Positions 2,022-49,043 of a stretch of DNA of 59,607 nt are shown here, piece by piece. The DNA comes from Desulfocapsaceae bacterium (GTDB taxonomy: Bacteria > Desulfobacterota > Desulfobulbia > Desulfobulbales > Desulfocapsaceae), in the NCBI GenBank assembly GCA_031292275.1, contig JARLHL010000057.1, positions 1 through 59,607 of the forward strand, in the 5' to 3' direction. The translations under genes and the position numbers were made by a program. Position 1 is the stretch's first letter. Each line of letters begins with the position of its first letter. The notes under the pieces are model-generated. The model was not told where the DNA came from. It did no database searches and saw nothing but the letters and a program-made list of their open reading frames with translations.

Positions 2022-2423
2022 ATGGAGAAACTGCTCAGGGGAAAACTTGTACGAAAGGCCGATATCGCCGTGAAGAGCAGAAAGCCCGCTCCAGCTGCAG
2101 ATGAGAAGGAAACGGCATTGGCAGACAGGCAATGCCATCCGGTCGCCTTTCTGGCCAAAAGCCTGGCGGATGAGAACCGGCTTCGGATTATTCTTTGCGT
2201 CAGCAACGGCAAGACATCCGTATCGGGCATTGTTGAAGAGCTCGGTCTCTCCCAGCCTTTAGTTTCCCATCACCTGAAGGAACTGAAGCGTTCTCTCCTG
2301 GTCAAAATTGAACGCAGCGGCCCTTTTATCTATTATGAACTGGTCGACCCCCGAATCCTCGATGTCATTCGAACATTGAGCGCCGTGGCAACAGACCTGC
2401 TGACCGCAAGGGAAACCTTTTAA
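2022..2423 (+). CDS. ArsR/SmtB-family transcriptional regulator
   Basis: ADENRLRIILCV...VSGIVEELGLSQPLVSHHLKELKRSLLV is the ArsR-type wHTH signature. The ATG at 2022 is preceded by GGAG at a 7-nt spacing. The longer ORF-track start at 1785 runs through an AT-rich, non-coding-looking leader. Confidence 0.8.
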   Translation: MEKLLRGKLVRKADIAVKSRKPAPAADEKETALADRQCHPVAFLAKSLADENRLRIILCVSNGKTSVSGIVEELGLSQPLVSHHLKELKRSLLVKIERSGPFIYYELVDPRILDVIRTLSAVATDLLTARETF

Positions 2424-2445
2424 GGATGGGGAGGTGAACATCCAT

Positions 2446-2901
2446 ATGAATGCACTGCTGAAAATCATTGACGGCATGGACCCGCAAGAAGCGGTCGACG
2501 AAATGGCCGCGGCCCTGAAAGGGCTTTTCTCCAGCTTGGGCGAAGAGGCGCGCTCACGGTTTCTCTGGAACCTGATGGGGGAATCCGGAGGGGATAAGGT
2601 ATCGAGCCTTGTCCATCTCAGACTGGCCGAATGCATGGGCGAAGGTGTCGACCCGACGCAGATGTGCCAGAGGCTGGTAGATAAGGTCGCTCAGTCCAAA
2701 CAGCTGATGGCGATAACCGACCCGGACCTGCTGGTGCTGTTCGAAGACTGGTTCGAAGAGCTGAAAGAGGAGCTCAGTGTGCTTGTCAAGAGGCACGGGC
2801 CGCTTAATCCGCCTGAGCTTGCAGACAAGCTCGGACTCTCGGTGCGGGGGGCGAAGTTTCTCCTGTCGAAGTTCGAGCGTGAGCAAAAAAAGAGAATGTA
2901 A
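2446..2901 (+). CDS. Hypothetical acidic protein of the redox cluster; the C-terminus may form a small HTH
   Basis: ORF immediately downstream of arsR. GGGGAGG lies 11 nt upstream of ATG 2446; an alternative GTG start sits at 2434. No family was recognised from the sequence. Confidence 0.5.
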   Translation: MNALLKIIDGMDPQEAVDEMAAALKGLFSSLGEEARSRFLWNLMGESGGDKVSSLVHLRLAECMGEGVDPTQMCQRLVDKVAQSKQLMAITDPDLLVLFEDWFEELKEELSVLVKRHGPLNPPELADKLGLSVRGAKFLLSKFEREQKKRM

Positions 2902-2928: not shown

Positions 2929-3288
2929 ATGCGGAATATACAATCGGCCCTCGTGGCCCTTGCGGCAGTGCTGCTGACGGTTGGAAGCCTCTGGCTGACC
3001 CATCGCACACTCCCCCCGGTCCAGGCGACATGGAACGATGTTCTGGACGAGTGGGAAAAAGGCGGCTACAGAATCGTGACCACCGAGGAACTTGCCGATC
3101 GTTATCAAAAGGATGCCGGAGGCCTGATCCTGGTCGATACCCACCAGGAATGGGAATACCGGACCGGGCATCTCAAAGGCGCCGTGAATTTTCCGATGGA
3201 GCCGACCGCATGGTCGAGATGGTGCAAGGCACCGGCCCTCGGCGCCTTGCTGGGTCCCGACAAGGACCGCTCCATCGTCTTCTACTGA
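2929..3288 (+). CDS. Rhodanese-domain protein with an N-terminal signal anchor, as conventionally called. It ends at a UGA exactly where the catalytic Cys is expected; see the selenoprotein finding
   Basis: RBS AAAGAGG 7 nt upstream. Signal/TM segment MRNIQSALVALAAVLLTVGSLWL. The rhodanese motifs LILVDTHQEWEYRTGHLKGAVNFP...DKDRSIVFY are followed by TGA at the canonical IVxYC position. Confidence 0.6.
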   Translation: MRNIQSALVALAAVLLTVGSLWLTHRTLPPVQATWNDVLDEWEKGGYRIVTTEELADRYQKDAGGLILVDTHQEWEYRTGHLKGAVNFPMEPTAWSRWCKAPALGALLGPDKDRSIVFY

Positions 3289-3327
3289 GCGGGGCTCACA
3301 TGAGTCCGAAGCGACTCGGCGGCCCGT

Positions 3328-4701
3328 GTGGCCGTAAAACTCGGCTATAAAAATGTCTCTCGCGACCCCTACGGCTACCCGGAATGGCAGGGAAGAGGCC
3401 TGCCCGTCGAGAGTGCCCCCGCAGGACTGGCTGCACAGACGCAGGAAGGGCCCAAAGCGCCGGGACCGCTGTCCGGCTGGGCGATGATATGGACCCTTCT
3501 GGGAATATTTGCAGGCGGCATGGCCCTCAATCTCACCCCCTGCGTCTATCCGTTGATCCCCATCACAGTCTCCTACTTTGGCGGTCAGGCCACGAAGCAG
3601 GGAGAGGGACGGGGAAGGCTGCTGTTGCACGGTCAGTGCTATATGCTGGGTCTTGCCTTAACCAACTCGCTGCTGGGAGTGGCTGCGTCCCTGACCGGCG
3701 GGCTGATGGGGGGCTTGCTCCAGAACCCCCTGGTTCTTGCGGTCGTGGCCGCGGTCCTTATCTTCTTTGCCGCCAGCCTCTTCGGCTTGTGGGAGATGCG
3801 TCTGCCGAGTGGCCTGACCCAGGCCGCTGCAAAATCCTATACCGGTTACTTCGGCAGCCTCTTCATGGGGCTGACCCTCGGGGTGGTTGCGGCCCCCTGC
3901 ATTGGACCTTTTGTGCTGGGCCTCCTCACCTGGGTTGCAGGCATGGGCAGCCCCTGGCTCGGATTCGTTATCTTTTTTACCCTGAGCCTGGGCCTCGGCC
4001 TGCCGCTCTTCCTTCTTGCCATGTTCTCGGGACAACTGCAAAAGCTTCCCCGTTCAGGGGACTGGATGATCTGGGTGAGAAAACTGATGGGCTGGGTCCT
4101 GGTCGGCATGGCCGCTCATTTCATCCGGCCCCTTCTCCCCGGTTCGGGGGGAACCATCGTGGTTGCCCTGGTCGCCTTGTCCGCCGGGCTTCATCTGGGC
4201 TGGATTGACAGCAGTCGGGCAAACTTCCGAGCCTTTCCCTGGCTGAAGACAGGCGCCGGCACCGCCTGTCTTGTCCTGGCCGCCTTTCTCTTGACATCAC
4301 GGGCAATGCAGGGGCCGGGGGTTAGGTGGAGACCCTATACAGAGGAAACCCTGCAGAAGGCCTGGGACCAGAAAAAGCCTGTCATTATCGATTTCTATGC
4401 CACCTGGTGCACGCCGTGCCGGGAACTTGACGAAGTCACCTTTCATAATGCCGCGGTCGTCAGCCAGGCAGAGCGTGATTTTATCATGGTGAAAGTGGAT
4501 GTAACCAGGGCGGGCAACCCCCTGAACGAACGATTACTGCAGCAGTATGGAATCAAGGGCGTTCCGACCATCGTCTTTCTTGATACGAACGGGGAAGAAC
4601 GGCAGGACCTGCGTCTGGTGGATTATCTCCCCCCCGACCGGTTCCTGAAACAGATGGCCGGAGTCGGAAAGAGCAGGATAAACGACGGAAAGGCGCAATA
4701 A
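3328..4701 (+). CDS. CcdA/DsbD-type transmembrane thiol:disulfide transporter fused to a C-terminal thioredoxin domain. As called it starts inside the rhodanese C-terminal homology region; the real product is probably a rhodanese-CcdA-Trx fusion
   Basis: CcdA/DsbD beta-domain cysteines in TM segments (LNLTPCVYPLIP; AAPCIGPFV). C-terminal Trx with WCTPC (IIDFYATWCTPCREL). The first about 30 codons (VAVKLGYKNVSRDPYGYPEWQGRGLPVE) are a classic rhodanese C-terminus in the same frame as the upstream rhodanese ORF. Confidence 0.7.
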   Translation: MAVKLGYKNVSRDPYGYPEWQGRGLPVESAPAGLAAQTQEGPKAPGPLSGWAMIWTLLGIFAGGMALNLTPCVYPLIPITVSYFGGQATKQGEGRGRLLLHGQCYMLGLALTNSLLGVAASLTGGLMGGLLQNPLVLAVVAAVLIFFAASLFGLWEMRLPSGLTQAAAKSYTGYFGSLFMGLTLGVVAAPCIGPFVLGLLTWVAGMGSPWLGFVIFFTLSLGLGLPLFLLAMFSGQLQKLPRSGDWMIWVRKLMGWVLVGMAAHFIRPLLPGSGGTIVVALVALSAGLHLGWIDSSRANFRAFPWLKTGAGTACLVLAAFLLTSRAMQGPGVRWRPYTEETLQKAWDQKKPVIIDFYATWCTPCRELDEVTFHNAAVVSQAERDFIMVKVDVTRAGNPLNERLLQQYGIKGVPTIVFLDTNGEERQDLRLVDYLPPDRFLKQMAGVGKSRINDGKAQ

Positions 4702-4760
4702 GGAGTAAAGATATGGCGAAGGTGAGATTTTTCCTCAACTTGCCCAACGGCAGGCCATGA

Positions 4761-5033
4761 ATGAATTTTCAGGAGATGATGCCCAGGCTGGGCATGAAGT
4801 ATAAGGGTATCGAGATCGAGGTAATGGCAAAACCCGTTGCAAATTACCAGAATGATGACTATTTCGCCCTGGATCTTCCGGTGGCGCCGGCGATTATGGT
4901 CGGAGAGGAGATTGTGATCGAAGGCGCGAATATCAGCCAGGATAAGGTGGAAAAGGTCATCTGCCGGCACCTGGGGTTACCCGAGCCGGAACCTAAAAAG
5001 AGGGGGATATTGGACTGTCTTTTCGGGCAATGA
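4761..5033 (+). CDS. Small thioredoxin-fold protein, C-terminal half similar to redox-active disulfide protein 2; a possible N-terminal extension begins at ATG 4713 and reads through UGA 4758
   Basis: VAPAIMVGEEIVIEGANISQDKVEKVICRHL resembles the C-terminal beta-alpha of small Trx-fold proteins. AGGAG lies 7 nt upstream of the in-frame ATG at 4713, and the RBS is weak at 4761. Confidence 0.45.
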   Translation: MNFQEMMPRLGMKYKGIEIEVMAKPVANYQNDDYFALDLPVAPAIMVGEEIVIEGANISQDKVEKVICRHLGLPEPEPKKRGILDCLFGQ

Positions 5034-5195: not shown

Positions 5196-5894
5196 ATGAA
5201 ATCAGAGACGGACCGCAAAGGGCCTGCAGTCAAAGCGGCCATCTTCATTGTCTTCCTTATCGCGGCAATCGTGCTTGTTCGCTTCACCCCGCTAAAGGAG
5301 TATTTGACCGCCGACAAATTGGGGAGTCTCCTGAAGGCTGCGGGACCGTGGACGCCTGCGGCCTACATCGGCCTCTATGCGGCAGGGGTCTGCCTCTTTC
5401 TGCCGGGAACTCTCCTGACTGCGGTTGGGGCGGCGGTCTTCGGCCCCTATTTCGGTTTTATCTATGTCTGGCTGGGGGCCATGCTCGGGGCAAGCCTCTC
5501 ATTCTTCATCGGCCGCTATCTGGGGAGGGACTTTGCCGCATCCCTAATCGGAGACCGGCTGAAGAAATACGATGAGGCCATCGGGCGAAACGGTTTTGCC
5601 ACGGTCCTGTACCTGCGCCTGGTCTACTTTCCGTTCACCCCGATGAACTTCGGCATGGGCCTGACTCGGGTGCGTTTTCGGGATTATTTTTCCGGGACGG
5701 CGCTCGGCATCATCGTCGGCACATTTATCTTCACATTCTTCATCGGCACGGTCAAAGAGGTCTGGTCGGACGGACATTGGGCAGGGCTGCTCTCCTGGAA
5801 GGTACTCTTCTCCTTGGGTCTCTTCATTTTTTCCTTCTTTATTCCCGCAATAGTCAAACGGATCAAGGCCGAACGAAAGGCAGAGACTGTTTAG
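5196..5894 (+). CDS. DedA/TVP38/TMEM64-family membrane protein
   Basis: Multiple TM segments plus the family core GxxxFGPYFGFIYVWLGAMLGASLSFFIGRYLGRDF and VYLRLVYFPFTPMNF. Confidence 0.85.
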   Translation: MKSETDRKGPAVKAAIFIVFLIAAIVLVRFTPLKEYLTADKLGSLLKAAGPWTPAAYIGLYAAGVCLFLPGTLLTAVGAAVFGPYFGFIYVWLGAMLGASLSFFIGRYLGRDFAASLIGDRLKKYDEAIGRNGFATVLYLRLVYFPFTPMNFGMGLTRVRFRDYFSGTALGIIVGTFIFTFFIGTVKEVWSDGHWAGLLSWKVLFSLGLFIFSFFIPAIVKRIKAERKAETV

Positions 5895-6104
5895 AGATTT
5901 TGTCCTTCAGGACGGTGCAATCACCAGAGTCGCCCCACTCGAACACAGTTTTGTATTTCTTTCTCATAAAATATTCAGTACAGGAGACAATACGGGATCC
6001 TTGCATTCTGCACGCCTCGTCCGTCCCGGTTTTTTTCTGTCTCTGCGCCTCCCTTTCAGAGTGGAGCGCGCCGTAATTTTTCGAAAAAAATGGAGGAATC
6101 CGAC

Positions 6105-6695
6105 ATGCCCGGCATTTTTGAAGTCTTGGCGGAACGCATCTCATCCGTTACATCCCGGCAGCGGTCTCTGATTTTCAAAATCCTCTCACTCATCGGCGGC
6201 GGGATGATTTTTCTGATGGTTTTTCCTTTTCTCTTAGGGGCCATCAGCAAGACCATACTCGGCGCAATACCGGAGGGAGCTCCCCTTTTTGTTCGATATA
6301 TAATCGGGATTCCCTGCATTGCAGTCGGGCTTGGCATTCTCATCTGGGCCGTCAAGGCATTCTGGTCATCAGGAGGAGGGACCCCTTCCCCGATTGCGGC
6401 TCCGCAGCTGCTGGTGACGACCGGACCATACAGATACTGCAGAAATCCCATACAGCTCGGAGCGATGATTCTGTATTTCGGCATGGGAGCGGTGGCAGAT
6501 TCAATCATCGCGGGGACGGGCATGTGCGGCCTGGCTCTGATCCTTGGCACTCTCTACCACTCTTGTATTGAAGAGAAAGAACTGCAGAGGCGATTTGGAG
6601 AGCAATACCTGCAGTACCGCAAAAGGACTCCCTTCCTCATCCCCCGATTCAACCTCCGTGCGGCGGATAAAGATTCAGCCTCGCCGCAGTGCTGA
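6105..6695 (+). CDS. Isoprenylcysteine carboxyl methyltransferase (ICMT)/phospholipid methyltransferase-family membrane protein
   Basis: TM-rich with the C-terminal motif TTGPYRYCRNPIQLG...EEKELQRRFGEQYLQYRKRTP (ICMT signature GxYxxxRHPxY...EE..L...FG..Y..Y). GGAGG lies 8 nt upstream of ATG 6105; an alternative start is at 6090. Confidence 0.7.
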   Translation: MPGIFEVLAERISSVTSRQRSLIFKILSLIGGGMIFLMVFPFLLGAISKTILGAIPEGAPLFVRYIIGIPCIAVGLGILIWAVKAFWSSGGGTPSPIAAPQLLVTTGPYRYCRNPIQLGAMILYFGMGAVADSIIAGTGMCGLALILGTLYHSCIEEKELQRRFGEQYLQYRKRTPFLIPRFNLRAADKDSASPQC

Positions 6696-6963: not shown

Positions 6964-7488
6964 ATGACAAATAGAAAATACATCTTTTCATGGGACCTTA
7001 TCGGAGATATTGAACTCGGACGCCCTAACCTCGGACCCACTACACGCATTGAAGTATACCGGCTTTTGCAGTATGTCTTTCGGGATGTTCTTGAAAGGCA
7101 TTTCGGCACTGAAATGACCGATACCCTTTTTTTTGAGGCCGGCAAACAGGCAGGCACCGAATTCTTCAAGAAGTTCTGTTCAGAAGTATCCGATCTGAAT
7201 GAATTCGTCACCACCCTGCAGGACCTGCTCAGAGATCTCAGCATCGGTGTCATGCGCGTTGAGGCGGCAGATCTTGAACGCGGCTCCTTCGTTATCACTA
7301 TTTCTGAAGACCTGGATTGTTCAGGGCTGCCGGAACTTGACTACGAAACCTGTGTGTATGACGAGGGATTTATTGCCGGATTAATGGAAAGTTTTACGGG
7401 TAAGGAATTCAAAGTCAAGGAAATTGACTGCTGGTGTACTGGAGACCGGACCTGCCGGTTTACCGCGAACATGGTGGAGCAACGTTGA
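6964..7488 (+). CDS. V4R (4-vinyl reductase) domain protein
   Basis: SWDLIGDIELGRPNLGPTTRIEVYRLLQ is the typical V4R N-terminal signature. A Cys-rich C-terminus is present. The TGA stop overlaps a TTG in the kinase frame (TTGA). Confidence 0.7.
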   Translation: MTNRKYIFSWDLIGDIELGRPNLGPTTRIEVYRLLQYVFRDVLERHFGTEMTDTLFFEAGKQAGTEFFKKFCSEVSDLNEFVTTLQDLLRDLSIGVMRVEAADLERGSFVITISEDLDCSGLPELDYETCVYDEGFIAGLMESFTGKEFKVKEIDCWCTGDRTCRFTANMVEQR

Positions 7489-11590: not shown

Positions 11591-11737
11591 TGCAAATATC
11601 TAAAGCTGATATATTTGCATTAATTCAAGATGCCCCATGCGCATCATAGAACTTTCCTAAGCATTCTTTCCGGCTTGTTACCGTCGTTTCCGTATCTGCG
11701 TTCCATAAAACTCGAATTCCGGTCTTGGTTCACGCGC

Positions 11738-14700
11738 ATGCCCTATCCCGATACGCCCTCCACGAAGACAAAGACTCGCCATCAGGCCACAAGTCCCGGC
11801 AGCAACCCTGTGAACATCAGGCCATCGGTCCCGGCAACGGTGGGAATAGGCGCGTCCGCCGGCGGCCACGAGGCCCTGGATCATCTTTTCCAGGCCCTTT
11901 CTCCCGACTGCGAACTCTGCTTCGTCGTCGTCATGCATCTGCCTGCAGACGGTCCATCCCTCCTGGCCGAACTCATTGGACACCAGTCCGCGATGCAGGT
12001 ATTGACCGCAGAAAACGAGATGCCGCTGCACCCGAAAACCATCCATGTGGCTCCACCGGGCATGGACCTGACTGTACGTGGCGGCCGGTTTCACCTGCAC
12101 CCTCGTCAGGATCAGGATATGCCGCATCACCCCATAGATATTTTTTTCAAATCACTTGCCGGGGATCTTGGCCAGAATGCCATCGCCGTGGTGCTCTCCG
12201 GCTTCGGCTCCGACGGCAGTCAGGGGGTCAAATGGATCAAAAAGGAGGGCGGGGTCGTCCTGATACAGGATCCGACGACGGCCATCCATCCCTATATGCC
12301 TCAGAACGCCATCGCCGCCGGGGCCGCCGATCTGATCCTGCCGGCGGCAGAGATCGCCGACAGGCTGACCAAGATCTCGAGGGACCATGGAATCCATGCT
12401 CCGCGCGCCTGTCTGAACATCGCCGCTGATGAGGACCTGACCCCCCTCTTCAATCTCCTGAGAGACCGGACCAGCCACGACTTCAGCTCGTACAAGAGGA
12501 ACACCGTGATCCGACGCATAGAACGCCGAATGACGGTCAAGGCCGCCAAAGAATTCAACAACTACCTGGAAGTCCTTGCAGAGGACCCTCAGGAAGCCCA
12601 CGCTCTCTGTCAGGATCTCCTGGTCGGCGTTACAAGTTTCTTCAGGGACCCCGACGCCTTCGACGTCCTCAACCGCGAGATTCTGCCCTCCCTTTTCGCC
12701 AATCGCGACAGGGAAGAGCCCGTGCGTATCTGGCATGCCTGCTGTGCCACCGGTGAAGAGGCCTACTCTGTAGCCATGCTGATTCTCGAGTACTTCGACG
12801 CCCAGGGCCTGCAGGCCAAAGTGCAGATCTTTGCCACCGATCTCGACGAGACCGCAGTCACCCAGGCCAGGGTCGGAATCTATTCCGATGACATCAAGCG
12901 GGAGGTGAGCCAGGAGCGTCTCCAACGCTTCTTTATCCGCAATGAGGGGCGCTGGCAGGTGAATAGCCGGTTAAGGGAGATGATTGTCTTCGCGACCCAT
13001 AATATCATCAAGGACCCGCCTTTCTCGCATCTTAACCTTCTCGTCTGCCGAAACTTTCTCATCTATCTGAATCCGGACATCCAAAGGCTGCTGCTCCCGC
13101 TTTTTCACCAGGTGCTGGTCCCGGGAGGATACCTCTTCCTGGGGTCAGCCGAGACGGTGGGTCTTCACGACGATCTGTTCAGCGCCGTCAACAAGAAGTG
13201 GAAAATCTTCTCGCGGCAGGGGGGGAAAAGCCGGGCCGAGGCTCTCTTTCCCTTCTCGGGCCCGGTCCGCAAGCTGTCCGACATCGAGCGTTCATACAAG
13301 TCCTCAGAGGCCGACGAGGCAAAGACCCTCGCCGCTGCCGAGAAACTTCTCATGGACCGCTATGTCCCCGCCCGCATAATCATCAACGAGAAGAGCGAGG
13401 TCGTTCATGTCTCACAGCGCGCGGGAGCCTATCTGCTGACCCCGGAAGGAAAACCGACCCAGGATCTCCTGAAAATGGCCCGGGAGGAGTTGCGACCTGC
13501 TCTCAGGGCCGCAATCTACAAGGCTTTTACCACCCAGCAGGAGATCGTCTATCGGGGGATACAGGTCATTACCGAAGGCGCGGAGGAGAGTGTCAATGTT
13601 ATCATACTGCCGTTGAAAGACTGCCCGCCGGCCTGCAAGCTGGCCGCAGTGATCATCGAGCCCGCCCCGCCGGCCCTGGTCCGTCCTCTGCCCCGGGATC
13701 AGGAGGACGGTGGCGACGCCGCCAGGAATTCACTGACTCGACAACTCGAGGAACAGCTGCGGGTGACGGGAGAGCAGCTCCGATCCACCAGCGAACAGCT
13801 GGAGACCTCCAACGAGCGGTTTACGCAGGCCAACGAAGAGCTGATGACGGTAAACGAGGAACTGCAGTCCACTAACGAGGAGCTGCAGTCCACCAACGAG
13901 GAACTGGTCACCGTCAACTCAGAGCTGCAGAGAAAGATGGAGGAACTCAACCAAAGCAACAGCGATATGGAGAACCTCTTCGCCAGCTCCGAGATTGCTG
14001 CCATTTTCCTTGATCGCGGCCTGCACATCAAGCGGTTTTCCCCGGCCATGGCGACAATTTTCAACCTGATTCCGGCTGATACCGGTCGGCCCTTCCGGCA
14101 TCTGAACAGCTCCATAGACTGGTCCTTTCTCCCCATCGACACGACAGCGGTTCTCGAGACCCTCACCCCAGTGGAACGGGAGGTCTGCTCAACGGTCGAT
14201 GGACGAACCTTTATTATGCGGGTCCTGCCCTACAAGACCACCGAAGGCATTGTCGACGGCATTGTCGTCACCCTGGTCGATATCAGCCAGCGTAAACAGG
14301 CAGAGAGGGCCCTGTATGCGACTCAGACAGCCCTGCGCGAAGGGGATGAACGGCTGCGGTTTGTGCTGGAAAGCTGCCACATCGGCGCCTGGGACCTTAA
14401 CTTGGATAACCATACCACCTCCCGCTCGCTGGAGCATGACCGCATCTTCGGTTACCCTGAACCGCTGCCTGCCTGGACACTGGAGATGTTCCTCGAACAT
14501 GTCCTGCCGGAGTACCGCCGGGATGTGAAAGAGATGGTCGCAGCGGCCATGGCGGCCAAGCAAGGATGGGCCTGCGAATGCCGCATCCGGCGGGCGGACG
14601 GTCAGATCCGCTGGATCTGGTTTGCGGGCCGCCATCTCACCGACCTGGCCGGTCACAGCCGGGTTGCAGGGATTATTCAAGATATAACCGACCGAAAAGA

Positions 14701-17473
14701 GGCTGAAGAGGAAAATTCCAGATTATTGAAGATCGTCCAGGAGGAGAAAGACAGACTGGCTGTACTGATCAACAGTATCACCGATGAGGTCTGGTTCGCC
14801 GATACCCAGAAGAAATTCACCCTGGCCAATCCTTCAGCCCTCAAGACATTCGGCTTGGAGGTCATGGGCCAGATTGATATTGAGGCCTTTGCCGCCAGTC
14901 TCGATGTGCTCCGCGCCGACGGAAGCCGGCGTCCCGTCCAGGAAGCCCCTCCTCTGCGCGCCCTGCAGGGCGAGGTGGTGAAGAATGCCGAAGAAGTCAT
15001 CCGCAATCCCGTCACCGGCGAACAACGCTATCGGGAGGTCAGCTCCAATTCGGTCAGAGATGCTCAGGGGAGTATCATAGGCGCCGTCACCGTTGTCAGG
15101 GACATCACCGATCGGAAGCGCGCTGAAGAGGCGCTGCGCAAATCCCGATCCAAGCTGGAGGCGGCCCTGTCCAGTATGACCGATGCGGTCTTCATCTCCG
15201 ATCAGGATGGGCAGTTTATCGAGTTCAACGATGCCTTCGCGACCTTTCACCGATTCAAAAACAAAGACGCCTGCCTGAAAAAATTTGCCAGTTACCCTGA
15301 CATTATCGAGGTTTTTATGGCCGACGGGGAACCCGCCCCCGTAGAGATGTGGGCTGTTCCCCGGGCCCTGCGCGGAGAAACCGTCACCAACACGATATAC
15401 GGCCTCCGGCGCAAGGATACCGGCGAAAGATGGGTCGGCAGCTACTCTTTTGCCCCTATCCGTGACAGCAGGGGAGTCATTTCCGGCTCGGTGGTGGTGG
15501 GACGCGATATCACCGAACTTGTGAAAAATGAAGAGGCCCTCAAGACAAGCGAACAGCTGTACCGCTCCCTCTTCGACAATATGCTCAACGGTTTTGCCTA
15601 CTGCAAAATGATCTACGACAATCACGAACCGTCTGACTTCATCTATCTGAACGTCAATGCGGCCTTCGAGGACCTGACCGGCTTGAAGGATGTGGAGAAC
15701 AAAAAGGTCTCGGAGGTTATCCCGGGCATTCGCCAGTCTGACCCTGAACTCTTCGAGATCTACGGCAGGGTCGCTTCGTCCGGTATTCCTGAACGCTTCG
15801 AAACCTTCGTCCAGGCCCTTGACATGTGGTTCTCAATCTCCGTCTACAGCCCGAAGAAGGAATATTTTGTCGCTATTTTTGATGTGATTACAGAGCGTAA
15901 GCGTGCCGAGGAGGCGCTCATCCTCAGCGAGCATCGACGAAGCCTGGCCCTGGAGGCCTCACATGCGGGGACCTGGGAGTGGAATCTCGCGACCAATGAA
16001 AATATCTGGTCCAATGAATTATGGCACCTCTACGGACTCGAACCCTTCAGCTGCAAACCATCCTACGATGAATGGCTGAAGACAATCCATCACGACGATC
16101 AGGCAAAGGTAGAACAGGCCCTCCGGCAGGCGATCGCCCAGGGTACTGCCTTCAATATCGAATGGAGGGTAGCAAAAACCCAGTGCTGGCTGGCTTCCCA
16201 CGGCCGGGCCTTGAGGGACATCCATGATCATATTGTCAGTTATGTGGGCACCGTTATGGATATCACCGAGCGCAAACTGGCCGAGGAGGAGAAAAAATCT
16301 CTGCAGATGCAGCTTATCCAGCTGCAGAAGATGGAGGCAATCGGCACCCTTGCAGGAGGAATAGCTCATGATTTCAACAATATACTTGGAGCTGTCATCG
16401 GCTTTGCCGAGTTGGCAAGGGATTCGATCCCGATGGATTCTGAGGCCGCAAACGATCTCGACAAGGTCCTGGAGGCGGGTGACCGGGCGACCCACCTTGT
16501 CAAACAGATCCTGGCCTTCAGTCGCCAGGCAAATTCTGAAATGGTTCCGCTGGAGCCTGTCCATCTGGTCAAGGAGACCATCAAACTGCTCCGTCCGGCC
16601 CTGCCTTCGACCATCACAATCAAACTGAATCTGGAAGCGGCAACAAAATTTATCCATGCCGATCCCACCCAGATCCACCAGATCGCGATGAATCTCTGCA
16701 CCAACGCCTTCCACGCCATGGAAAAGACCGGCGGCATCCTCGAAATCGGTCTCATGGACTGTCAGGTCTCCTCTCAGGACCTGCCGCCCCACGCCAAGGT
16801 ACAGGCCGGGAAATTCGTTGTACTTTCCGTTGGCGATACTGGACCGGGAATACCGCCGGAGATACAGACCAAGATTTTTGAACCGTATTTCACCACCAAG
16901 GAAGTCGGCAAAGGCACCGGTATGGGCCTCTCCATCATCTACGGCATTGTCACCACCATGGGCGGTTTCATCACCTGCGAGAGCGAACTGAATAAAGGAT
17001 CGATATTCCGCGTATTTTTCCCAGCAATTGAACCAACCCCCGGTATAGCCATCGACCGTAACGATACTATTTCCTCCGGCGAAGAACATATCCTCTTCAT
17101 CGATGACGAGATCATTCTCGCCGAGATGGGCAAAATCATGCTTGAACGCCTAGGCTATACCGTAACACTTCGGACCAGCAGCCTGGAGGCTTTGGAACTC
17201 TTCAAGACCCAGCCGAATCTGTTTGACGCCGTCGTTACCGACCAGACGATGCCCGGCATGACCGGGATGGACATGGCACAGAGGATGCTGGAAATCCGGC
17301 CGGATATACCCATCATACTCTGTACGGGCTACAGCACTCTGGTCAGCGAAGAACAGGCGAAACTCAATGGAATCAAAGAATTTATCATGAAGCCCATGTC
17401 AAAAAAGGATATTGCCCAGCGGCTGAGGAGCGTACTGGATGGCTCCGCTCAGGAGACCACAGCCCCTACATGA
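11738..17473 (+). CDS. Giant chemotaxis-type signalling fusion: CheB methylesterase + CheR methyltransferase + coiled-coil linker + multiple PAS + HisKA/HATPase_c + REC
   Basis: CheB domain ([16 protein letters not shown]...VVMHL), CheR domain ([11 protein letters not shown]...[17 protein letters not shown]), heptad linker [27 protein letters not shown], at least 4 PAS blocks, the H-box [16 protein letters not shown], HATPase [48 protein letters not shown]...[11 protein letters not shown]. The ORF opens at 11630; the start is assigned to the ATG at 11738 (MPYPD...). Confidence 0.9.
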
Positions 17474-20489: not shown

Positions 20490-20916
20490 AACCGATTGCC
20501 GGGAAAGGATCTCCGGCATTGATCCATTGAGGAGATGTTTTGAGGCAATACGGTACTCTCTCATGACGGCATCGGTCTTCCTTCCCTCCCGCCACGTACG
20601 CAATTTACCTCGGAACCGCGATATTGGGATATAATCTGTCCTGGCGGTTGCCGAAGGCAAGTACTCCAGGAACCGAGCACGCAACACTGTTTTCACGATG
20701 ATCAATGTCAGAAAATAATACAGCCCGTATCGGGATCAATTACATGAATGTTCCCCGGGAATTGGGGGAGCGCCGGACCAAAGAGACGCCTTTCCCTATT
20801 TCGTTGCGGCAGATCGGTTTGGTTGCACCATGCTGGTTTATGGAAAGTTTCATGCATTCACACCTGTATCAGCAGTAACGAACCTGTTATTTATGCCATC
20901 ATAAAAGGAGATGACT

Positions 20917-21621
20917 ATGACCAGATATTTCTTCAGACCTTTACTGTATGCGACAACCGTTATTTTCTGTTTTGCGACGCATTCCGTGGCGGAAGATCAG
21001 CGACGGATCGTACTCAATGAAAAGCAATTCAAGGAATCGTTCCTTGACACGGTCAGTGTCTCAGGCGGTATTCGTGCCGGCTTCATGTACCAGAGCCCCC
21101 TGGAGCATGTCGACATCAATGAACTCTATGTCAATTTGCAGCATGATATAGAGGATCAGGATGCTGTTCTCTGTGTAAACATGGTAAGCCGTGACGGCCG
21201 ATATTCAGCCTCGTGGGACTATGCTCTGGGGAAACAAGCTGCCGGCTCCATCGCCGTCACCCTGCCGTCAAAATATCAGACACAGGTGTCGAGCTATTCG
21301 CCCGATGCATTAGTTGTCCTTGCCGCCATAGCGAAAAAAGAATGCGGCTCCGGCGAAATGAAATATGTCCCGACCAGCTGGGGCGCAGCTACCAAATCCG
21401 ACTATATACTGTATGTAAATTCAGGGAATACGGATACGATTATCGGTATTCCGGGCCAGACGGAAAGGATTCAGTGCGCCAGGATTACCGCTGACAGCAC
21501 GATTGCCTATGATACGCGCTGCATAATTGCAAAAGATATTCTTGATGAGCCTAAAAGTATATTCCTGGTGAGAAAAAATTTCGGCAACAGGCTGCCAAAC
21601 GTCGAGTTTCCTGTGAGATAA
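20917..21621 (+). CDS. Secreted hypothetical protein
   Basis: AAGGAG 6 nt upstream of ATG 20917; signal peptide MTRYFFRPLLYATTVIFCFATHSVA. No recognised domain. Confidence 0.5.
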   Translation: MTRYFFRPLLYATTVIFCFATHSVAEDQRRIVLNEKQFKESFLDTVSVSGGIRAGFMYQSPLEHVDINELYVNLQHDIEDQDAVLCVNMVSRDGRYSASWDYALGKQAAGSIAVTLPSKYQTQVSSYSPDALVVLAAIAKKECGSGEMKYVPTSWGAATKSDYILYVNSGNTDTIIGIPGQTERIQCARITADSTIAYDTRCIIAKDILDEPKSIFLVRKNFGNRLPNVEFPVR

Positions 21622-21624
21622 CTG

Positions 21625-22662
21625 GTGAAAATCACGAGGACATTAAAAAGATTTTTAGCGGTAATAGGAAATGTCTTTCTTGCTGCAGCGGTATCCGAAC
21701 CTGAAAAGGATCACTTTCGGAACTTATCGAACAGGCACCCTCGTTATTTGCATTTCATAGCATTATTATTCTGTATTTACGTATTATTTTTGATGTTTTT
21801 GCTAACCAGAGCCGTCATAAGCTCCCTGACCACCGGCTCATTCATTATTTCCGCGAGAACGGAACGAATTGAATATCAACCCGACAGCATTGATCCCCCA
21901 AGAATAGCATTCCATAATGCAACATTTCATTGGGATGAGATCAGTGATGAGAAGTTTGACCCATCAGTTTCGACCTCAACGAGATCAAAATCATTGCCTC
22001 CGGAAAGCAGCGGTTCCCTGCAGATTCAAGGTAAATCAAAGATTGTTTTTTCAAGGGTGGGTACAGGGCCGCTGCACATTCAAATTCAAAGCAAAAACCC
22101 TACCATTGTCTACGATGAAAATGATCAAAGGCAATTTTCTCTGCCCGGTGTTGTTGATTTGGTGCTGAACGATCCGAATCAATTAATAAATCAAGGCATA
22201 TCATGGAAATACAACATCGACGGACCGTTAATAATAGGTCGGGTCCCGACCTTTGGCCTGCAGTTGCAGAACGGACTCCTGCTTGAAGGTGAAATCCAGA
22301 TGGTTGCCAAACAGTTATTGTCCGGCAACCATTACAAAGTGGAACCGTATAAGCTGCAGTTGGGTGACGAAATACAATTCGTGCCCGCCGAGCCAAAGAC
22401 AAGCGGTCTGGTGACATTCGACGCTGATCGAGGAATGCTGATCGTCGCCATTGTCGAGGCTCGATCCGCGACAATAAAAAAATTTAGAGAAACGAATTTT
22501 AAAATTCAAAATAATTTGTGGTCCAAACTCGGCAAGGATCAGGAACTGGTGATAACCTGGGCGATAATGCTTCTTGTACCGGGTATCCTGGTGTTTCTTA
22601 CCCGTTTATTGTATTTCCACCTGCAACTGAAATCCCATGAAGACTCTCAGCAGTCCCCATGA
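21625..22662 (+). CDS. Membrane protein, unknown function (N-terminal TM pair and a C-terminal TM anchor)
   Basis: GTG start 3 nt after the preceding stop (operon-like). Hydrophobic segments FLAVIGNVFLAAAV, FIALLFCIYVLFLMFLL, ITWAIMLLVPGILVFLTRLLYF. Confidence 0.45.
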   Translation: MKITRTLKRFLAVIGNVFLAAAVSEPEKDHFRNLSNRHPRYLHFIALLFCIYVLFLMFLLTRAVISSLTTGSFIISARTERIEYQPDSIDPPRIAFHNATFHWDEISDEKFDPSVSTSTRSKSLPPESSGSLQIQGKSKIVFSRVGTGPLHIQIQSKNPTIVYDENDQRQFSLPGVVDLVLNDPNQLINQGISWKYNIDGPLIIGRVPTFGLQLQNGLLLEGEIQMVAKQLLSGNHYKVEPYKLQLGDEIQFVPAEPKTSGLVTFDADRGMLIVAIVEARSATIKKFRETNFKIQNNLWSKLGKDQELVITWAIMLLVPGILVFLTRLLYFHLQLKSHEDSQQSP

Positions 22663-22722
22663 GCAATAAGCAGCTGGAATGCATATGATTTTCTGCAAGA
22701 TATTTCCAATATCGCCTCCATT

Positions 22723-24420
22723 TTGAATAAAAAGAGATACTTCATGCATCGCTATTTTCACATCAGCACTGTCTTCTTTTTCCTCAGCATCTGCTTTGCG
22801 CAAGCCTCTTTTTCATCAGATGCATATATCAAAGTCGATGATAACGAACTCGGCCAGGGCATACTGCGTCAACGGGGCATTGAATGTCTACTCATAACTC
22901 CTGCCCATGTTGTTGAAAACGCTTTAAAAGTCGACGTGACCGTGGCCGACAAGACAAAATATCCGGCAGAAATTATGGAATTATTTCCGGGTGATATCAG
23001 CGTGCTGCGGATCAAGGGCGATGAGTCGTCTCCGTGCAGCCATGCAAGCTGGTCTAACACGAGCAATTTAAACGCCCTGCTGGAAAAGGAAAATCAGGGC
23101 GAACTGCGAACCATGCTCGCTGACGGAAGTATCCGCATAACTCCCGTTGATATTGTCGGCTATGATAAATACCGAAACATTAATGTCCGCCCGACCCATC
23201 AATCGGATGCAATTTTGAAAGGTGAGAGCGGGAGCCTCCTGTATATTGCCGGTCAGCTTTCCGGGATGCTTCTTTCCGTGAAAGACGGCATTGGCAATGT
23301 TATTCGTCAGGACGTGCTGGCCAATACCCTTGCCTTGTTTTTTGAAGATTCTCATCAGGCGGATAGACAGGGCGCGCATCAGCCGAATAGCAAAACCACC
23401 GCAAATCCTCCGGCTCAAGAAACAGCCCTGACCGGTCAACCAGGAATTTCCGGTATCATTGCCGAAGGCGCAGGAGTCGAATATCCCGTCACCTTGCAGG
23501 AGAACAGTCCCGTCCGCCTGAGGTTTTCGGCCACAGGGGATACCGAGAGATACAGTGTCGAAATATGGGATTCAAAGCATAAGGCAGTCTATCGAAATCC
23601 GGGCAAAAATTATTCAGGGACAGAATCCGTCAGTATCCCCTTTACACCGCCTCGAAATGATACCTACACGCTGCACATTACGGGTACTCAAGGCGAAGGG
23701 AAGTACGCAGTCGAGATTCAAACGATAGCCTTGGATTCTCAATTGCGCAGTCCGAAAAATATTATCCGGATTGGAGAAAATGCAACTGAGGGTATACTTG
23801 CCCAGGGCGCCGTTGCCGAGTACCAGGTCAGGCTGGAGGAAAACAGCCCCGTCCGTCTGGAATTCCCGGCCACAGGAGATACGGGGAAATACAATGTCGA
23901 AATATGGGACTCGAAGAAACAAGCAGTCTATCGGGATCCGGGTAAAAATTATTCCGGGACAGACTCCGTCAATATTCCCTTTACGCCACATCAAGATGAT
24001 ACCTATACACTGCGTATTATCGGGACTGAAGGAGAAGTGAAGTATACCGTCAGGATAGCATCGATTGCCCTGAACGCTCAATTGCGAGGCGATGCAAATA
24101 TTATCCAGATTGGAGGCAATTCCGTTGAAGGCGTACTTGCTCAGGGCGCTGTCGCAGAGTACCGGCTTGAGCTGGCGGCATACACCCCGGTCCGTCTGAA
24201 CTTTTCCGCAACAGGGGACAACGGGAAATACAATGTTGAAGTATTTGATTCAAATGGGAATATTGTATACCGGGATCCCTACAAACGGTATAGCGGCACC
24301 GAGGCGGCCATGCTCCCGCTCACTGTATCCAAAAACGATACCTATTTAATACGCCTCAAAGGAATTGAAGGGGAATGCAAATTTTCGCTGAATATTATGC
24401 GGGCGCCGGGGAAATCGTAG
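22723..24420 (+). CDS. Secreted trypsin-like serine peptidase with three C-terminal PPC (pre-peptidase C-terminal) domains
   Basis: Signal peptide. A chymotrypsin-fold catalytic His context LLITPAHVV and Ser context KGESGSLLY. Three repeats of about 113 aa (ENSPVRL.F.ATGD..KYNVEIWDS...YR.P...YSGT.S..IPFT....DTYTL.I.G..GE.KY.V.I) match the PPC-domain pattern. Confidence 0.75.
   Translation: MNKKRYFMHRYFHISTVFFFLSICFAQASFSSDAYIKVDDNELGQGILRQRGIECLLITPAHVVENALKVDVTVADKTKYPAEIMELFPGDISVLRIKGDESSPCSHASWSNTSNLNALLEKENQGELRTMLADGSIRITPVDIVGYDKYRNINVRPTHQSDAILKGESGSLLYIAGQLSGMLLSVKDGIGNVIRQDVLANTLALFFEDSHQADRQGAHQPNSKTTANPPAQETALTGQPGISGIIAEGAGVEYPVTLQENSPVRLRFSATGDTERYSVEIWDSKHKAVYRNPGKNYSGTESVSIPFTPPRNDTYTLHITGTQGEGKYAVEIQTIALDSQLRSPKNIIRIGENATEGILAQGAVAEYQVRLEENSPVRLEFPATGDTGKYNVEIWDSKKQAVYRDPGKNYSGTDSVNIPFTPHQDDTYTLRIIGTEGEVKYTVRIASIALNAQLRGDANIIQIGGNSVEGVLAQGAVAEYRLELAAYTPVRLNFSATGDNGKYNVEVFDSNGNIVYRDPYKRYSGTEAAMLPLTVSKNDTYLIRLKGIEGECKFSLNIMRAPGKS
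23455..24405 (+). repeat. Three tandem repeats of about 339 bp each (the in-frame PPC-domain repeats inside the protease gene)
   Basis: The repeat units begin near 23455, 23794 and 24133, which is a 339-bp period. Protein-level identity between units is high. Confidence 0.7.
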
Positions 24421-42327: not shown

Positions 42328-43344
42328 TCAAGATGGATTTCCGTACCGTTTACACAGCTCAAGATTGATTTCCAGCACGTTAACAAACGGCTCTCCCGCA
42401 AGCCCGTTAAACGGTGCCGAGGCATTCTGCTGCAACATCTGCTCAATCTCTTTACGGACCGTGTCCGGGTTACGATGGAGGTTGGCAGCCCATTTGGCTG
42501 CAACACGATCCAGTTGGAACAGGGCATTCTGCATCGTTATATGCGGATCCAGCCCGGAAGCCGATGCGGTAACCAGATCCCCGGGGACATCCTGAAGATC
42601 GGCTTCTGGGTGTTCATGGCGCCACATTTCAAAGAAGATAGACTGGATGTCCGAACCTTCCTTTACCGGTTCGATGGCAGTTACCTCCTTCCCGTCAGCA
42701 TCAGTTTTCGTGACGGCAGAGGGGAATCTCCCCGGATTCTTGTTAGAAAAATCGGTAAAGAACACCACAGCCAGATCCGCTGTTTTTGGCTTGGGAGTGG
42801 TTGGGTTGTCCTTAATCCACTGGTCTACCAGGGCGGGGTTATTTTTCGCCCAGTCATCCACATAGGCACCATTTTTCGGGTCAGCGCCCACCCAGGCCTG
42901 GGCCAGAGAGTTGTGCTGTCCCGCCCATTGGGCGACAATATGCGGCTCACCCCCATAGACGTCTTTACTAAACCATTGCTCGACGTCAGGGGCCACCAGC
43001 TGGCCTGCTTTCTCACCACCACGGTATTTCACAATCGGCCCGAGCACACGGGCAACCCTGTCGCGCAACGTATAGTTGGAAGGAGCCAGGGATGATGAGG
43101 CCGAGGCCGAGGCATCATACGACGGCGACGAAGGCCGGGGCTGGAAGTATTCGTCCTTGGTAAACGGCTGGGCAATGAGCTTGGAACCCACAACGGTGCC
43201 GTCCGGTCCCTTCAATAAGCTGCCGTCGGCCTGGAACGGAAAGACGGTCTTTCCGATTGCCCATAATACCAAAGGGTAGATGATACAGCAGATGATCACC
43301 GAGAATAATAAAAGCAGAATGCTTTTTGAAAAGTATCGTAACAT
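42328..43344 (-). CDS. kdpC: Potassium-transporting ATPase subunit KdpC, with a central insertion of about 150 aa
   Basis: N-terminal TM plus FPFQADGSL...GS.LIAQPF...YFQPRPS, C-terminal VTASASGLDPHIT...EPFVNVLEINLEL. It is 338 aa, against about 190 aa typical. Confidence 0.85.
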   Translation of the reverse strand: MLRYFSKSILLLLFSVIICCIIYPLVLWAIGKTVFPFQADGSLLKGPDGTVVGSKLIAQPFTKDEYFQPRPSSPSYDASASASSSLAPSNYTLRDRVARVLGPIVKYRGGEKAGQLVAPDVEQWFSKDVYGGEPHIVAQWAGQHNSLAQAWVGADPKNGAYVDDWAKNNPALVDQWIKDNPTTPKPKTADLAVVFFTDFSNKNPGRFPSAVTKTDADGKEVTAIEPVKEGSDIQSIFFEMWRHEHPEADLQDVPGDLVTASASGLDPHITMQNALFQLDRVAAKWAANLHRNPDTVRKEIEQMLQQNASAPFNGLAGEPFVNVLEINLELCKRYGNPS

Positions 43345-43370
43345 AGTAATTCTCCTTATGTACTGAAAGA

Positions 43371-45533: not shown

Positions 45534-45610
45534 AGCATACTCCTTTGGGCACTGTAATTATTTCACATTTTCCTTTTACGATGTTCTCCAGACGATGCAA
45601 CTTCACTGGA

Positions 45611-48033: not shown

Positions 48034-48612
48034 TCAGTTGATGTTATGAACAGAATTAAATCTCTGGACATCGGTATTGATCAAAGTCCGCACCGATTTC
48101 ACATAACCGTTCGGATCATAGGCATTGCCGTTATCCTGCAAACGATAGGAGCCGATGTTATAACTTAACACCGCCTTATCCCATCGTGCCGGACCCGAAA
48201 AGCGGGAGAGCAGATATTTGAAATAGGAGGTGGCGATTTTGATATTGAAGACATCGTCGTCACGAATCTTTCGGCGAAGTTGGTCGTCCGGGAGAAGATC
48301 GGATTTGGATAAGCCCCATATCTTGACCAGGACAAATTTAGCGGTATCAAGTTTGATTTGCATGACCCCATAGCACTGATCGTTTCGAGCGGCCTTGGCA
48401 GGACCCCGAGATCGACCACCATTGGTCTCTCGCAAAAGGAGTCCCTGAATCGTCTCCGGGCAGCCAATTTTTTTTCCTTCCTGATAGGCCACACTCATGA
48501 GTTTGCCATAGGGCAGAATTGTTGATTCTTCAGCCAGCCTTTCCCGGGCCGAAGCCATTATTGGTAATAGAGTTATAAATAACAATGCGATAAATATTTT
48601 ATTAAATAGCAT
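48034..48612 (-). CDS. Lytic transglycosylase-domain protein (SLT family), secreted
   Basis: Signal peptide MLFNKIFIALLFITLLPIMASA; catalytic region LLRETNGG...CYGVMQIKLDTAKFV (E.S...GLMQ-type motif). Start taken at 48612; the ORF track's longer start is at 48702. Confidence 0.7.
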   Translation of the reverse strand: MLFNKIFIALLFITLLPIMASARERLAEESTILPYGKLMSVAYQEGKKIGCPETIQGLLLRETNGGRSRGPAKAARNDQCYGVMQIKLDTAKFVLVKIWGLSKSDLLPDDQLRRKIRDDDVFNIKIATSYFKYLLSRFSGPARWDKAVLSYNIGSYRLQDNGNAYDPNGYVKSVRTLINTDVQRFNSVHNIN

Positions 48613-49012
48613 ACAGAAATCCTTTGTTGGAACCTGAGGGCACATGAGACTATTTCTCAACGGCTCCGTGCTGCAGGAAACCAGGCATTTGATTGACAAC
48701 AATCAGTTAGGTTCTAGAAATCCAGACTTTCACAAAAGGAACCGCAACAGAGGGGGTGGACACTTCACAAAGCGTCTAAACTCACTCCATTTCAGCGGAG
48801 ACTAATGAGAAAGAGTTGCCAGAATCAGGGCAGACAGAAGAAAGAGTAATGACAAAACAGTTGCCGGGCTGGCCTGCAGCGATACTCTCTCTATGGGTTG
48901 GACGCGGTGGGGATATCGTTGGGTGGTAAATTTGATAGGCTGCATTAGGTTCACCTCAATAATGTGAAATTCATTAAGGGCACAGCCTGCCGAGATCTTC
49001 GGCTCAGACCAT

Positions 49013-49043
49013 TGCCCTTCCAAATGCCTACGAGGTTAGCTGA
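49013..49043 (+). promoter_or_regulatory. Conserved 31-nt motif upstream of the KdpE-like regulator (copy 2)
   Basis: TGCCCTTCCAAATGCCTACGAGGTTAGCTGA; identical to copy 1 at about 27 of 31 positions. Confidence 0.35.

Follow-up and report, generated by a model that had tools for sequence, protein, structure and literature searches.

TsoB is listed in a table of a 2026 review (PMC13188914) as a rhodanese/DsbD fusion-like selenoprotein with a UxxxxU motif and two selenocysteines (Sec, written U), and is credited there to Haft and Tolstoy (2025; mSystems 10:e0141724, doi 10.1128/msystems.01417-24, PMC12013261). The review lists TsoA (LULAxC) and TsoC (NEPxGxxU) beside it, Tso standing for "three selenoprotein operon", and also holds rhodanese-like selenoproteins with a single Sec, known from deltaproteobacteria and marine metagenomes (PMC13188914). 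PspE of E. coli, a periplasmic rhodanese with a single Cys, is connected with the reducing pathway of DsbC and DsbD (Chng et al., 2012, as cited in PMC5403849). What is said of Tso here is drawn from the table of that review and from NCBIfam names; BSepDB makes no mention of Tso. The locus compared here with these systems is a reading frame, interrupted by two in-frame UGA codons, at positions 2929-4701 of the forward strand of a contig from a Desulfocapsaceae bacterium (JARLHL010000057.1, assembly GCA_031292275.1). The whole stretch of DNA that was analyzed, 59,607 nucleotides (nt) long, is called the window.

This frame is, with high probability, a single intact tsoB gene of a tsoR-tsoA-tsoB-tsoC operon, with both of its UGA codons decoded as Sec. 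It is a genuine, mis-annotated copy of a widespread selenoprotein family described in 2025, and not a new kind of protein. A first-pass annotation, made from the letters of the DNA, had read the region as one rhodanese-CcdA/DsbD-thioredoxin frame with Sec at both UGA codons, and had suggested that such a fusion would be an unusual sulfur/selenium-trafficking redox protein. The first of these proposals gains support from 78 related loci, from Cys homologs, from covariation in a selenocysteine insertion sequence (SECIS), and from the TsoB family model. The second needs qualification: the protein is no unrecognized oddity, TsoB being already a named family (PMC13188914). What is new here is the correction of the annotation, the analysis of two hairpins, and the Sec/Cys variants of the family.

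The coding features on which the argument turns are three.

2929..4701 (+): tsoB, complete coding sequence, its two UGA codons very probably read as Sec (translation; NF045694).
3286..3288 (+): first putative Sec codon, UGA, residue 120, at the canonical position of the catalytic Cys (alignment with PDB structures; TGA in 79/79 sequences).
3301..3303 (+): second putative Sec codon, UGA, residue 125, within two residues inserted into the active-site loop, immediately ahead of a helix (PDB alignment; TGA in 79/79 sequences; model of the homolog P0087).

Translated on the forward strand, the frame runs for 590 codons to a TAA stop at 4699-4701, and its internal stops are, as the first-pass annotation had stated, two TGA and nothing else: codon 120 (3286-3288) and codon 125 (3301-3303). 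The peptide around them reads ...KDRSIVFY-(stop)-AGLT-(stop)-VRSDSAARVAVKLGYKNVSRDPYGYPEWQGRGLPVE..., or, in a shorter display, ...DRSIVFY-(stop)-AGLT-(stop)-VRSDSAARVAVKLGYKNV... Mechanical calls of open reading frames (ORFs) cut this frame in two, at 2929..3288 (119 amino acids, aa) and from a GTG at 3328 to 4701 (457 aa). The public record for this metagenome-assembled genome (MAG) holds the same two pieces, P0121, a "rhodanese-like domain-containing protein" of 119 aa, and P0001, a "cytochrome c biogenesis protein CcdA" of 457 aa. Hundreds of related database entries likewise come as 119-aa and 450-aa pieces. The 39 nt that separate the two called ORFs, which the ORF callers leave unassigned, encode AGLT-U-VRSDSAAR.

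The rhodanese domain pays no heed to this cut. Pfam model PF00581 (E = 7.6e-12; 46 bits against a cut-off of 22.2; profile positions 2-100 of 102) matches residues 52-154, spanning both TGA codons and extending past the GTG at 3328, so that the downstream start lies inside the rhodanese homology, as had been claimed. The first TGA falls, again as proposed, on the catalytic Cys of three rhodaneses of known structure, 6mxv (FYCGG--FRS), 3d1p (FYCAS--GKRG), and 2hhg (FYCAG--GLRS). The standard six-residue rhodanese loop (C-x4-R/T) is not what is found here; the loop U-AGLTU-V-R is two residues longer, and the insertion bears the second Sec. The Pfam domain order then bears out the continuation of the same frame into a CcdA/DsbD domain and a WCTPC thioredoxin.

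For comparison with Pfam and NCBIfam, the product was scored with both U written as C. The model NF045694 (seleno_TsoB) gives 989.7 bits against a curated cut-off of 805, aligning residues 7-578 with profile positions 3-570 of 572. All four of the defining features of TsoB that were examined are present: a score above the cut-off, a UxxxxU motif with two in-frame UGA codons, a rhodanese-DsbD-thioredoxin fusion, and a place in a tso operon. The copy is intact, because just one of 144 near-invariant family columns deviates (R72H). A decaying operon was considered for the window, where TsoA carries Arg for Sec and several odd residues occur; for TsoB, this count of one in 144 rules it out.

Relatives were sought by a scan with one genome per species, which gave 80 related loci, 78 of them with the motif and upstream region present. 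They come from Desulfobulbaceae/Desulfobulbales, Syntrophobacteraceae/Syntrophobacterales, Desulfobacterales, Desulfarculus, Desulfatibacillum, an Olavius symbiont, and others, and are 59-86% identical in amino acids to the TsoB of the window. Both TGA codons are kept in 78/78 of these loci, within the motif FY-U-xGLx-U-(V/A)RSDSAAR, and TGA stands at both columns in 79/79 aligned sequences. Two TGA codons at identical columns in 78 loci are not there by chance. The 39-nt stretch between the called ORFs is conserved in these 78 loci at the level of protein, with changes mostly at wobble positions.

Alignment of homologs at the two columns, a check that the first-pass annotation had suggested, gave Sec/Sec in the 78 loci and, beyond these, Cys/Sec and Cys/Cys forms. 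Among the Cys/Cys homologs are P0071, FYCTGQTCVRSD, and P0087, FYCAGPDCVRSD. Three genes are Cys/Cys (L081, L082, L084) and two are Cys/Sec (L086, L088), with TGY at the column of the first UGA in all five; the Cys/Sec genes come from a metagenome pattern scan whose pattern left out Sec/Cys forms. The Cys homologs are single full-length proteins. The variant motifs lie at 3713-3765 in L086, 1366-1418 in L088, and 1835-1887 in L084; two further loci, L085 and L087, appear degraded upstream. The proteins P0122 and P0123 were looked at as database entries that might span the junction, and were set aside as frameshifted or chimeric calls.

Two other loci depart from the pattern in ways of their own. 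In L083 (4001-5764, GCA_964598885.1; protein P0081), GGA (Gly) and CGA (Arg) occupy the Sec positions, each one base from TGA; both hairpins after these positions are intact, and TsoA and TsoX of the same locus retain TGA. As judged from its codons, this rhodanese centre is one with neither selenium nor cysteine, in an organism that still decodes Sec. In L029 (around 3900-3965), tsoB carries a third in-frame TGA (LLUPDK against LLGPDK in others) and the upstream tsoA carries TAG/TAA stops. This may be a decaying paralog; a second copy, L013, is in the same MAG.

How, then, would a ribosome read two UGA codons that lie 15 nt apart? The bacterial SECIS (bSECIS) model, as given in the 2026 review, has a loop of 3-9 nt, a G within the first two loop positions followed by G or U, a spacing of 16-37 nt, and a minimum free energy (MFE) of -7.5 kcal/mol or below (PMC13188914). 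Here, 117 nt around the two UGA codons were compared in 79 sequences, in an alignment without gaps (A1). Two hairpins abut in this region; the two codons are called UGA-1 and UGA-2 in what follows.

3301..3318 (+): hairpin 1, UGAGUC-CGAAGC-GACUCG, candidate SECIS for UGA-1 (MFE; pairing in 79 sequences).
3319..3335 (+): hairpin 2, GCGGCC-CGUGU-GGCCGU, SECIS as judged from covariation, RNAalifold, and MFE.

Hairpin 2 has six base pairs, with a core CGGCC/GGCCG and an MFE of -9.5 kcal/mol. Its loop, C-G-(U/G)-G-U, begins 21 nt past UGA-2 and 36 nt past UGA-1; its loop, its energy, and both of these spacings lie within the bSECIS model. RNAalifold recovered it independently. Compensatory changes occur at two pairs that fall on codon wobble positions (GC 56, AU 13, CG 3, UA 1 at one; CG 70, UA 9, none broken, at the other). 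Cells with a double change number 26, against 4.5 in shuffles; no shuffle in 500 reached as high a value, and slid controls gave 0-4. The first-pass annotation had noted a hairpin at 3320-3334, 16 nt after the second UGA, and had suggested a comparison of the junction with a bacterial SECIS model. That hairpin exists as the core of the 6-bp element, which covaries and fits the model. By this comparative evidence, hairpin 2 is a covariation-supported SECIS, and the recoding of tsoB appears to be directed by RNA structure inside the coding sequence.

The whole region from 3280 to 3370 folds with an unremarkable energy (MFE z = -1.0). The evidence for structure comes from the comparison of sequences, and not from energy. 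RNAalifold also offers an alternative hairpin at 3292-3307, which has four pairs and no covariation. An Rfam search of the window matched no SECIS family; its sole match is a riboswitch described below.

Hairpin 1 is a less settled matter. It holds UGA-2 inside its 5' arm, pairs GAGUC with GACUC, and has a loop that begins 18 nt past UGA-1 with G at its second position. Loop and spacing accord with the bSECIS model; the MFE of -6.3 kcal/mol (z = -3.2) lies above the -7.5 kcal/mol that the model sets. Across the 79 sequences, 94.7% of cells are paired. Synonymous constraint in the gene is strongest here: across the 11 codons that follow UGA-2, the normalized entropy of synonymous codons falls to 0.41, while it stands at 0.83 elsewhere in tsoB. 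Among 280 sliding windows this value ranks second-lowest, and the one window below it (0.405) overlaps these codons. The wobble positions in the stem are nearly frozen (Asp GAC in 78/79; Val GUC/GUU in 75/79), while those in the loop vary, which is the pattern expected of a stem-loop. Hairpin 1 is thus a probable second SECIS serving UGA-1, at something like even chances. Of the first-pass claim of a hairpin starting at 3302, the stem has held, lying within 3301-3318; its role as a SECIS is plausible and unproven.

If both hairpins work, the two UGA codons would be decoded by two abutting mini-SECIS elements in tandem, 3301-3318 and 3319-3335. In such a relay, the ribosome would melt the first element after inserting Sec-120, exposing the UGA-2 that had been paired in its stem, and the second element would then serve UGA-2. 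We put this forward as a tentative proposal, its chances somewhat short of even. No description of a relay arrangement of bacterial SECIS elements was found in the literature searched.

The arrangement might also be a different one. A single SECIS, hairpin 2, could serve both UGA codons, at 36 and 21 nt, with 3301-3318 conserved for reasons of spacer, codon context, or protein; this has perhaps one chance in three. Both distances lie within the bSECIS range, hairpin 2 is the one with compensatory changes and recovery by RNAalifold, hairpin 1 fails the energy criterion, and hairpin 1 persists intact in the Cys/Sec genes L086 and L088, from which UGA-1 is gone. Yet 36 nt lies at the far limit of the spacing that the model allows, nowhere else in tsoB is synonymous choice as constrained as in the stem codons of hairpin 1, whose loop wobbles are free, and its loop, with G at position 2, lies 18 nt from UGA-1.

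The protein that results from reading both codons through is laid out as follows.

2947..2997 (+): hydrophobic segment at the N terminus, an anchor or a signal, residues 7-23 (hydropathy; helix 2-24 in the P0087 model).
3082..3390 (+): rhodanese domain, residues 52-154, holding both putative Sec codons (Pfam PF00581; PDB alignments).
3487..4134 (+): DsbD-type transmembrane domain, residues 187-402 (Pfam PF02683, E = 3.2e-40; PDB match to Thermus CcdA, 5vkv).
4327..4653 (+): C-terminal thioredoxin-like domain, residues 467-575, with WCTPC (Cys494/Cys497) at 4405-4419 (Pfam PF00085/PF13899).

Hydropathy gives the N-terminal anchor and eight helices after the rhodanese domain. Two Cys are conserved in the membrane, Cys205 in TPCVYP (3541-3543) and Cys324 in APCIGP (3898-3900). 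The mean number of Lys and Arg residues in the family is 1.7-2.2 in loops 2, 4, 6, and 8, against 0, 0, and 1.1 in loops 3, 5, and 7; by the positive-inside rule, the rhodanese and thioredoxin domains would lie outside, in the manner of DsbD. The best PDB sequence matches of the thioredoxin domain are to the gamma domain of E. coli DsbD (4ip1, 1uc7, 2fwe), where WCTPC aligns with WCVAC. In an AlphaFold model of the Cys homolog P0087, the gamma domain is likewise the best fold match (TM-score 0.80-0.85), the central strand, at 116-120, leads into Cys121, and the second Cys lies ahead of a helix at 127-138.

What the protein might do is suggested in part by its neighbors.

2022..2423 (+): tsoR, ArsR/SmtB-type metalloregulator; mechanical ORF from TTG 1785, likely start ATG 2022 (NF045707).
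2434..2901 (+): tsoA, LULAxC-motif family, here L-R-L-A-E-C; likely start ATG 2446 (NF045695).
2637..2654 (+): SECIS-like hairpin of tsoA, GGGCGA-AGGUG-UCGaCCC, intact despite AGA at the Sec position (RNAalifold).
4713..5033 (+): tsoC, NEPxGxxU-motif selenoprotein, here NLPNGRP-U, with its Sec TGA at 4758-4760 (NF045708).
4780..4794 (+): SECIS hairpin of tsoC, UGCCCA-GGC-UGGGCA, beginning 19 nt past its UGA (RNAalifold consensus of 68 sequences).
5196..5894 (+): DedA/VTT membrane protein, directly 3' of the tso genes (Pfam PF09335, E = 2e-25).

All three partners score above their family cut-offs: TsoR with 161.3 bits against 115 (ORF residues 116-212), TsoA with 213.5 against 170, and TsoC with 134.4 against 45. 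In tsoC, ORF calls begin at an ATG at 4761, right behind the Sec codon, and so drop the first 16 residues. TGA stands at this column in 67 other loci, and variants of the hairpin preserve its pairing (CUCUCA/UGAGAG, UCCCCA/UGGGGA). In tsoA, the hairpin is nearly invariant in 44 loci, where RNAalifold gives a bulged stem and a 5-nt loop. The Sec codon of tsoA, at 2620-2622, is AGA (Arg) in the window and TGA in 43/43 other loci with the motif; this may reflect a recent loss of Sec to Arg, polymorphism in the population, or a mistake in assembly. When the window was scanned blind for pairs of ORFs joined by TGA, 277 candidates emerged, most of them spurious, and no further selenoprotein gene besides tsoB and tsoC.

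Across the related loci, TsoB is followed by TsoC in 66-67 and has TsoA and TsoR ahead of it in about 52. A DedA/VTT homolog sits in this place in 19 loci, with the window included, and is a frequent neighbor without being universal. Further recurrent neighbors are a GcvH-related protein (11 loci), the thioredoxin reductase TrxB (10), and ArsM-type selenoproteins (9); other methyltransferases and ArsR-rhodanese fusions also recur beside tsoB. In the window, the DedA gene is followed by a PEMT/isoprenylcysteine-methyltransferase-like protein at 6090-6695 and a V4R/MsvR-like protein at 6964-7488 (+).

These features suggest a mechanism. TsoB would be a relay of the DsbD type whose alpha domain has been swapped for a rhodanese, with the rhodanese and thioredoxin domains in the periplasm. 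Electrons would pass from cytoplasmic thioredoxin to the Cys pair of the membrane domain, from there to the periplasmic CxxC, and finally to the U-x4-U centre. This centre, as a diselenide/diselenol or as a Se-bound adduct, would act on a substrate outside the cytoplasm. Because TsoR is of the ArsR/SmtB type, and because ArsM-type proteins, methyltransferases, TrxB, and DedA recur as neighbors, the evidence suggests that this substrate is a metalloid or chalcogen species rather than a protein disulfide.

The same neighbors can, of course, be read differently. The two selenols might mainly form a site of very high affinity that binds or transfers a soft metal or a metalloid (species of As, Hg, Cd, Te, or Se), with the DsbD module only keeping them reduced, with a role in sequestration, sensing, or hand-off rather than as a redox centre that turns over. 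A metalloregulator of the ArsR/SmtB family in the operon would fit, as would the recurrence near tsoB of selenoproteins of the arsenite-methyltransferase type, other methyltransferases, and ArsR-rhodanese fusions. Chemistry would fit as well; a diselenide is hard for a CxxC thioredoxin fold to reduce, and two selenolates five residues apart suit chelation. We consider this reading unlikely. The cradle of the rhodanese, with its conserved Arg (U-x4-U-V-R-S), is the catalytic anion-binding loop in all characterized relatives, and a dedicated electron relay, together with an adjacent TrxB in 10 loci, suggests a continuous flow of electrons.

Several observations count against the view that TsoB is a double-Sec protein decoded and working as described here. 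The literature searched, in which the primary paper of Haft and Tolstoy (2025) was not covered, yielded no direct demonstration of selenium incorporation in any TsoB. Within the window, there is no tRNA (and so no tRNA-Sec), nor is selA, selB, selD, or any additional selenium gene found among the larger ORFs. Indirect support for such machinery comes from tsoC, a second gene of the window with a UGA codon and a SECIS of its own. The structural model is that of the homolog P0087, at a moderate predicted local distance difference test score of 70.6, below 50 in the membrane core. Hairpin 2 is largely retained in the three Cys/Cys genes found (L081 and L084 among them), which means that its pairing is partly set by the codons of Ala-Ala-Arg-Val-Ala-Val; indeed, four of its six pairs are dictated by the Ala-Ala...Ala-Val codons. 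Hairpin 1 lacks compensatory changes, was not picked by RNAalifold, reaches only -6.3 kcal/mol, and has some pairs broken without compensation in 4-11 of the 79 sequences. Diselenides have redox potentials much below those of disulfides of the thioredoxin type, so that reduction of U-x4-U by the CxxC domain is not guaranteed. Last, TsoA and TsoC have no visible signal peptides, and are therefore unlikely to be direct partners in the periplasm.

Do these points restore the two products of the public annotation? On that account, a rhodanese fragment of 119 aa is made separately from a CcdA-thioredoxin protein that starts at the GTG at 3328, or the locus is a pseudogene in decay. Separate pieces are indeed what one finds called in the record and in nearly all database relatives, and the machinery for Sec is not seen in the window. 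But the 39-nt gap, varying mainly at wobble positions, is conserved as protein in 78 loci; nothing short of reading through both stops gives a complete rhodanese; the Cys homologs are single full-length proteins; the SECIS covaries; the GTG at 3328 sits inside a rhodanese helix and has no independent support; and the read-through protein passes a curated TsoB model. We regard the public annotation as very improbable.

Nor is it credible, although selenium incorporation is not directly observed, that the UGA codons are read as something other than Sec by a near-cognate tRNA or through a lineage-wide reassignment, since homologs carry Cys, the usual counterpart of Sec, at the aligned column, SECIS-type hairpins follow the UGA of tsoB, of tsoC, and, in relatives, of tsoA, and, of the 23 genes of the window that are well supported, 12 have TGA as their ordinary stop (kdpA, kdpB, and kdpC among them, each matching its family profile right to the end), which means that the recoding is local and that UGA has not been reassigned genome-wide.

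Reading 2929-4701 as one double-Sec tsoB has consequences. With the gene split in this record and in hundreds of relatives, the true product, the operon, and two further Sec codons (in tsoC and, in relatives, in tsoA) are missed. TsoB would place a centre with two seleniums outside the cytoplasm, wired to cytoplasmic thioredoxin, and it occurs widely among sulfate reducers and syntrophs. Experiments are feasible in cultured carriers of tsoB, among them Desulfoprunum benzoelyticum DSM 28570 (locus L028); Desulfobulbus sp. Tol-SR (L015) has the gene too. A pair of Sec codons lying within five codons of each other, with one covarying and one constrained hairpin, provides a compact natural system in which to study the spacing rules of SelB and SECIS. 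The Sec/Sec, Cys/Sec, Cys/Cys, and Gly/Arg forms of TsoB, together with the Sec-to-Arg form of TsoA, offer a route to asking which selenium is essential.

Some features of the window lie apart from the tso genes. A cyclic di-adenosine monophosphate riboswitch (RF00379, 93.8 bits) at 49010-49146 (-) lies upstream of an SLT-domain ORF (48034-48702) and of kdpABC (42328-47440), and KdpE is encoded at 49428-50240 on the strand opposite the riboswitch. The KdpC ORF, 42328-43344 (-), encodes 338 aa against about 190 aa in the family profiles; its match to the profile falls into two stretches, residues 3-100 and 250-330, suggesting that some 150 residues have been inserted. At 11630-17473 (+), a fusion of 1947 aa joins a CheB methylesterase, a CheR methyltransferase, multiple PAS domains, a histidine kinase, and a receiver. 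At 20911-24420 (+), neither Pfam nor NCBIfam matches any of three successive ORFs (236, 345, and 565 aa); the 345- and 565-aa ORFs share a frame with TGA 22660 between them, in a context unlike that of a selenoprotein.

How does this TsoB compare with what has been described? With the TsoB family it shares the domain order, the UxxxxU motif with two Sec, and the operon partners TsoR, TsoA, and TsoC. Nothing essential differs; the copy in the window is un-annotated and split, has His for the near-invariant Arg 72, and has a partner TsoA with Arg for Sec. With the single-Sec rhodanese-like selenoproteins (forms 1-4, PMC13188914; NF041203, rhodanese_LYCAU) it shares the rhodanese fold and a Sec in or beside the active-site loop. 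Those proteins, however, are soluble and of a single domain, with one Sec (UxxS, UxxG, CxU), whereas TsoB has two Sec, a loop longer by two residues, and a covalently attached electron relay; NF041203 gives it 29.4 bits against a cut-off of 115.

PspE resembles TsoB in being a rhodanese of the periplasm; its active-site chalcogen participates in the thiol-redox chemistry of the envelope and depends on a reducing pathway fed by DsbD. It differs in being a separate soluble protein with one Cys and no selenium, linked to DsbD indirectly, via DsbC. Eukaryotic selenoprotein L also has two nearby Sec in a redox motif, UxxU, and its Sec pair is reportedly able to form an intramolecular diselenide (Shchedrina et al., 2007). 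Unlike TsoB, it is eukaryotic, with a thioredoxin fold, a SECIS in the 3' untranslated region, and no membrane relay.

E. coli DsbD shares with TsoB the membrane domain of eight helices, with one Cys in each of two P-C-x-x-P-like motifs, the C-terminal periplasmic thioredoxin-like domain with its CxxC, an N-terminal extracytoplasmic acceptor with a close redox pair, and the topology proposed here. In DsbD, the redox pair of the alpha domain is Cys103/Cys109. TsoB has, in place of the immunoglobulin-like alpha domain, a rhodanese with Sec-x4-Sec, so that the terminal acceptor has a fold of the catalytic type and is not, as in DsbD, a carrier for DsbC, DsbG, or CcmG. The DsbD model NF001419 gives TsoB 232.5 bits against a cut-off of 330, aligning profile positions 163-570 only. 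Thus, with the alpha domain absent and the score below the cut-off, TsoB would work like DsbD, yet is not a member of the DsbD family.

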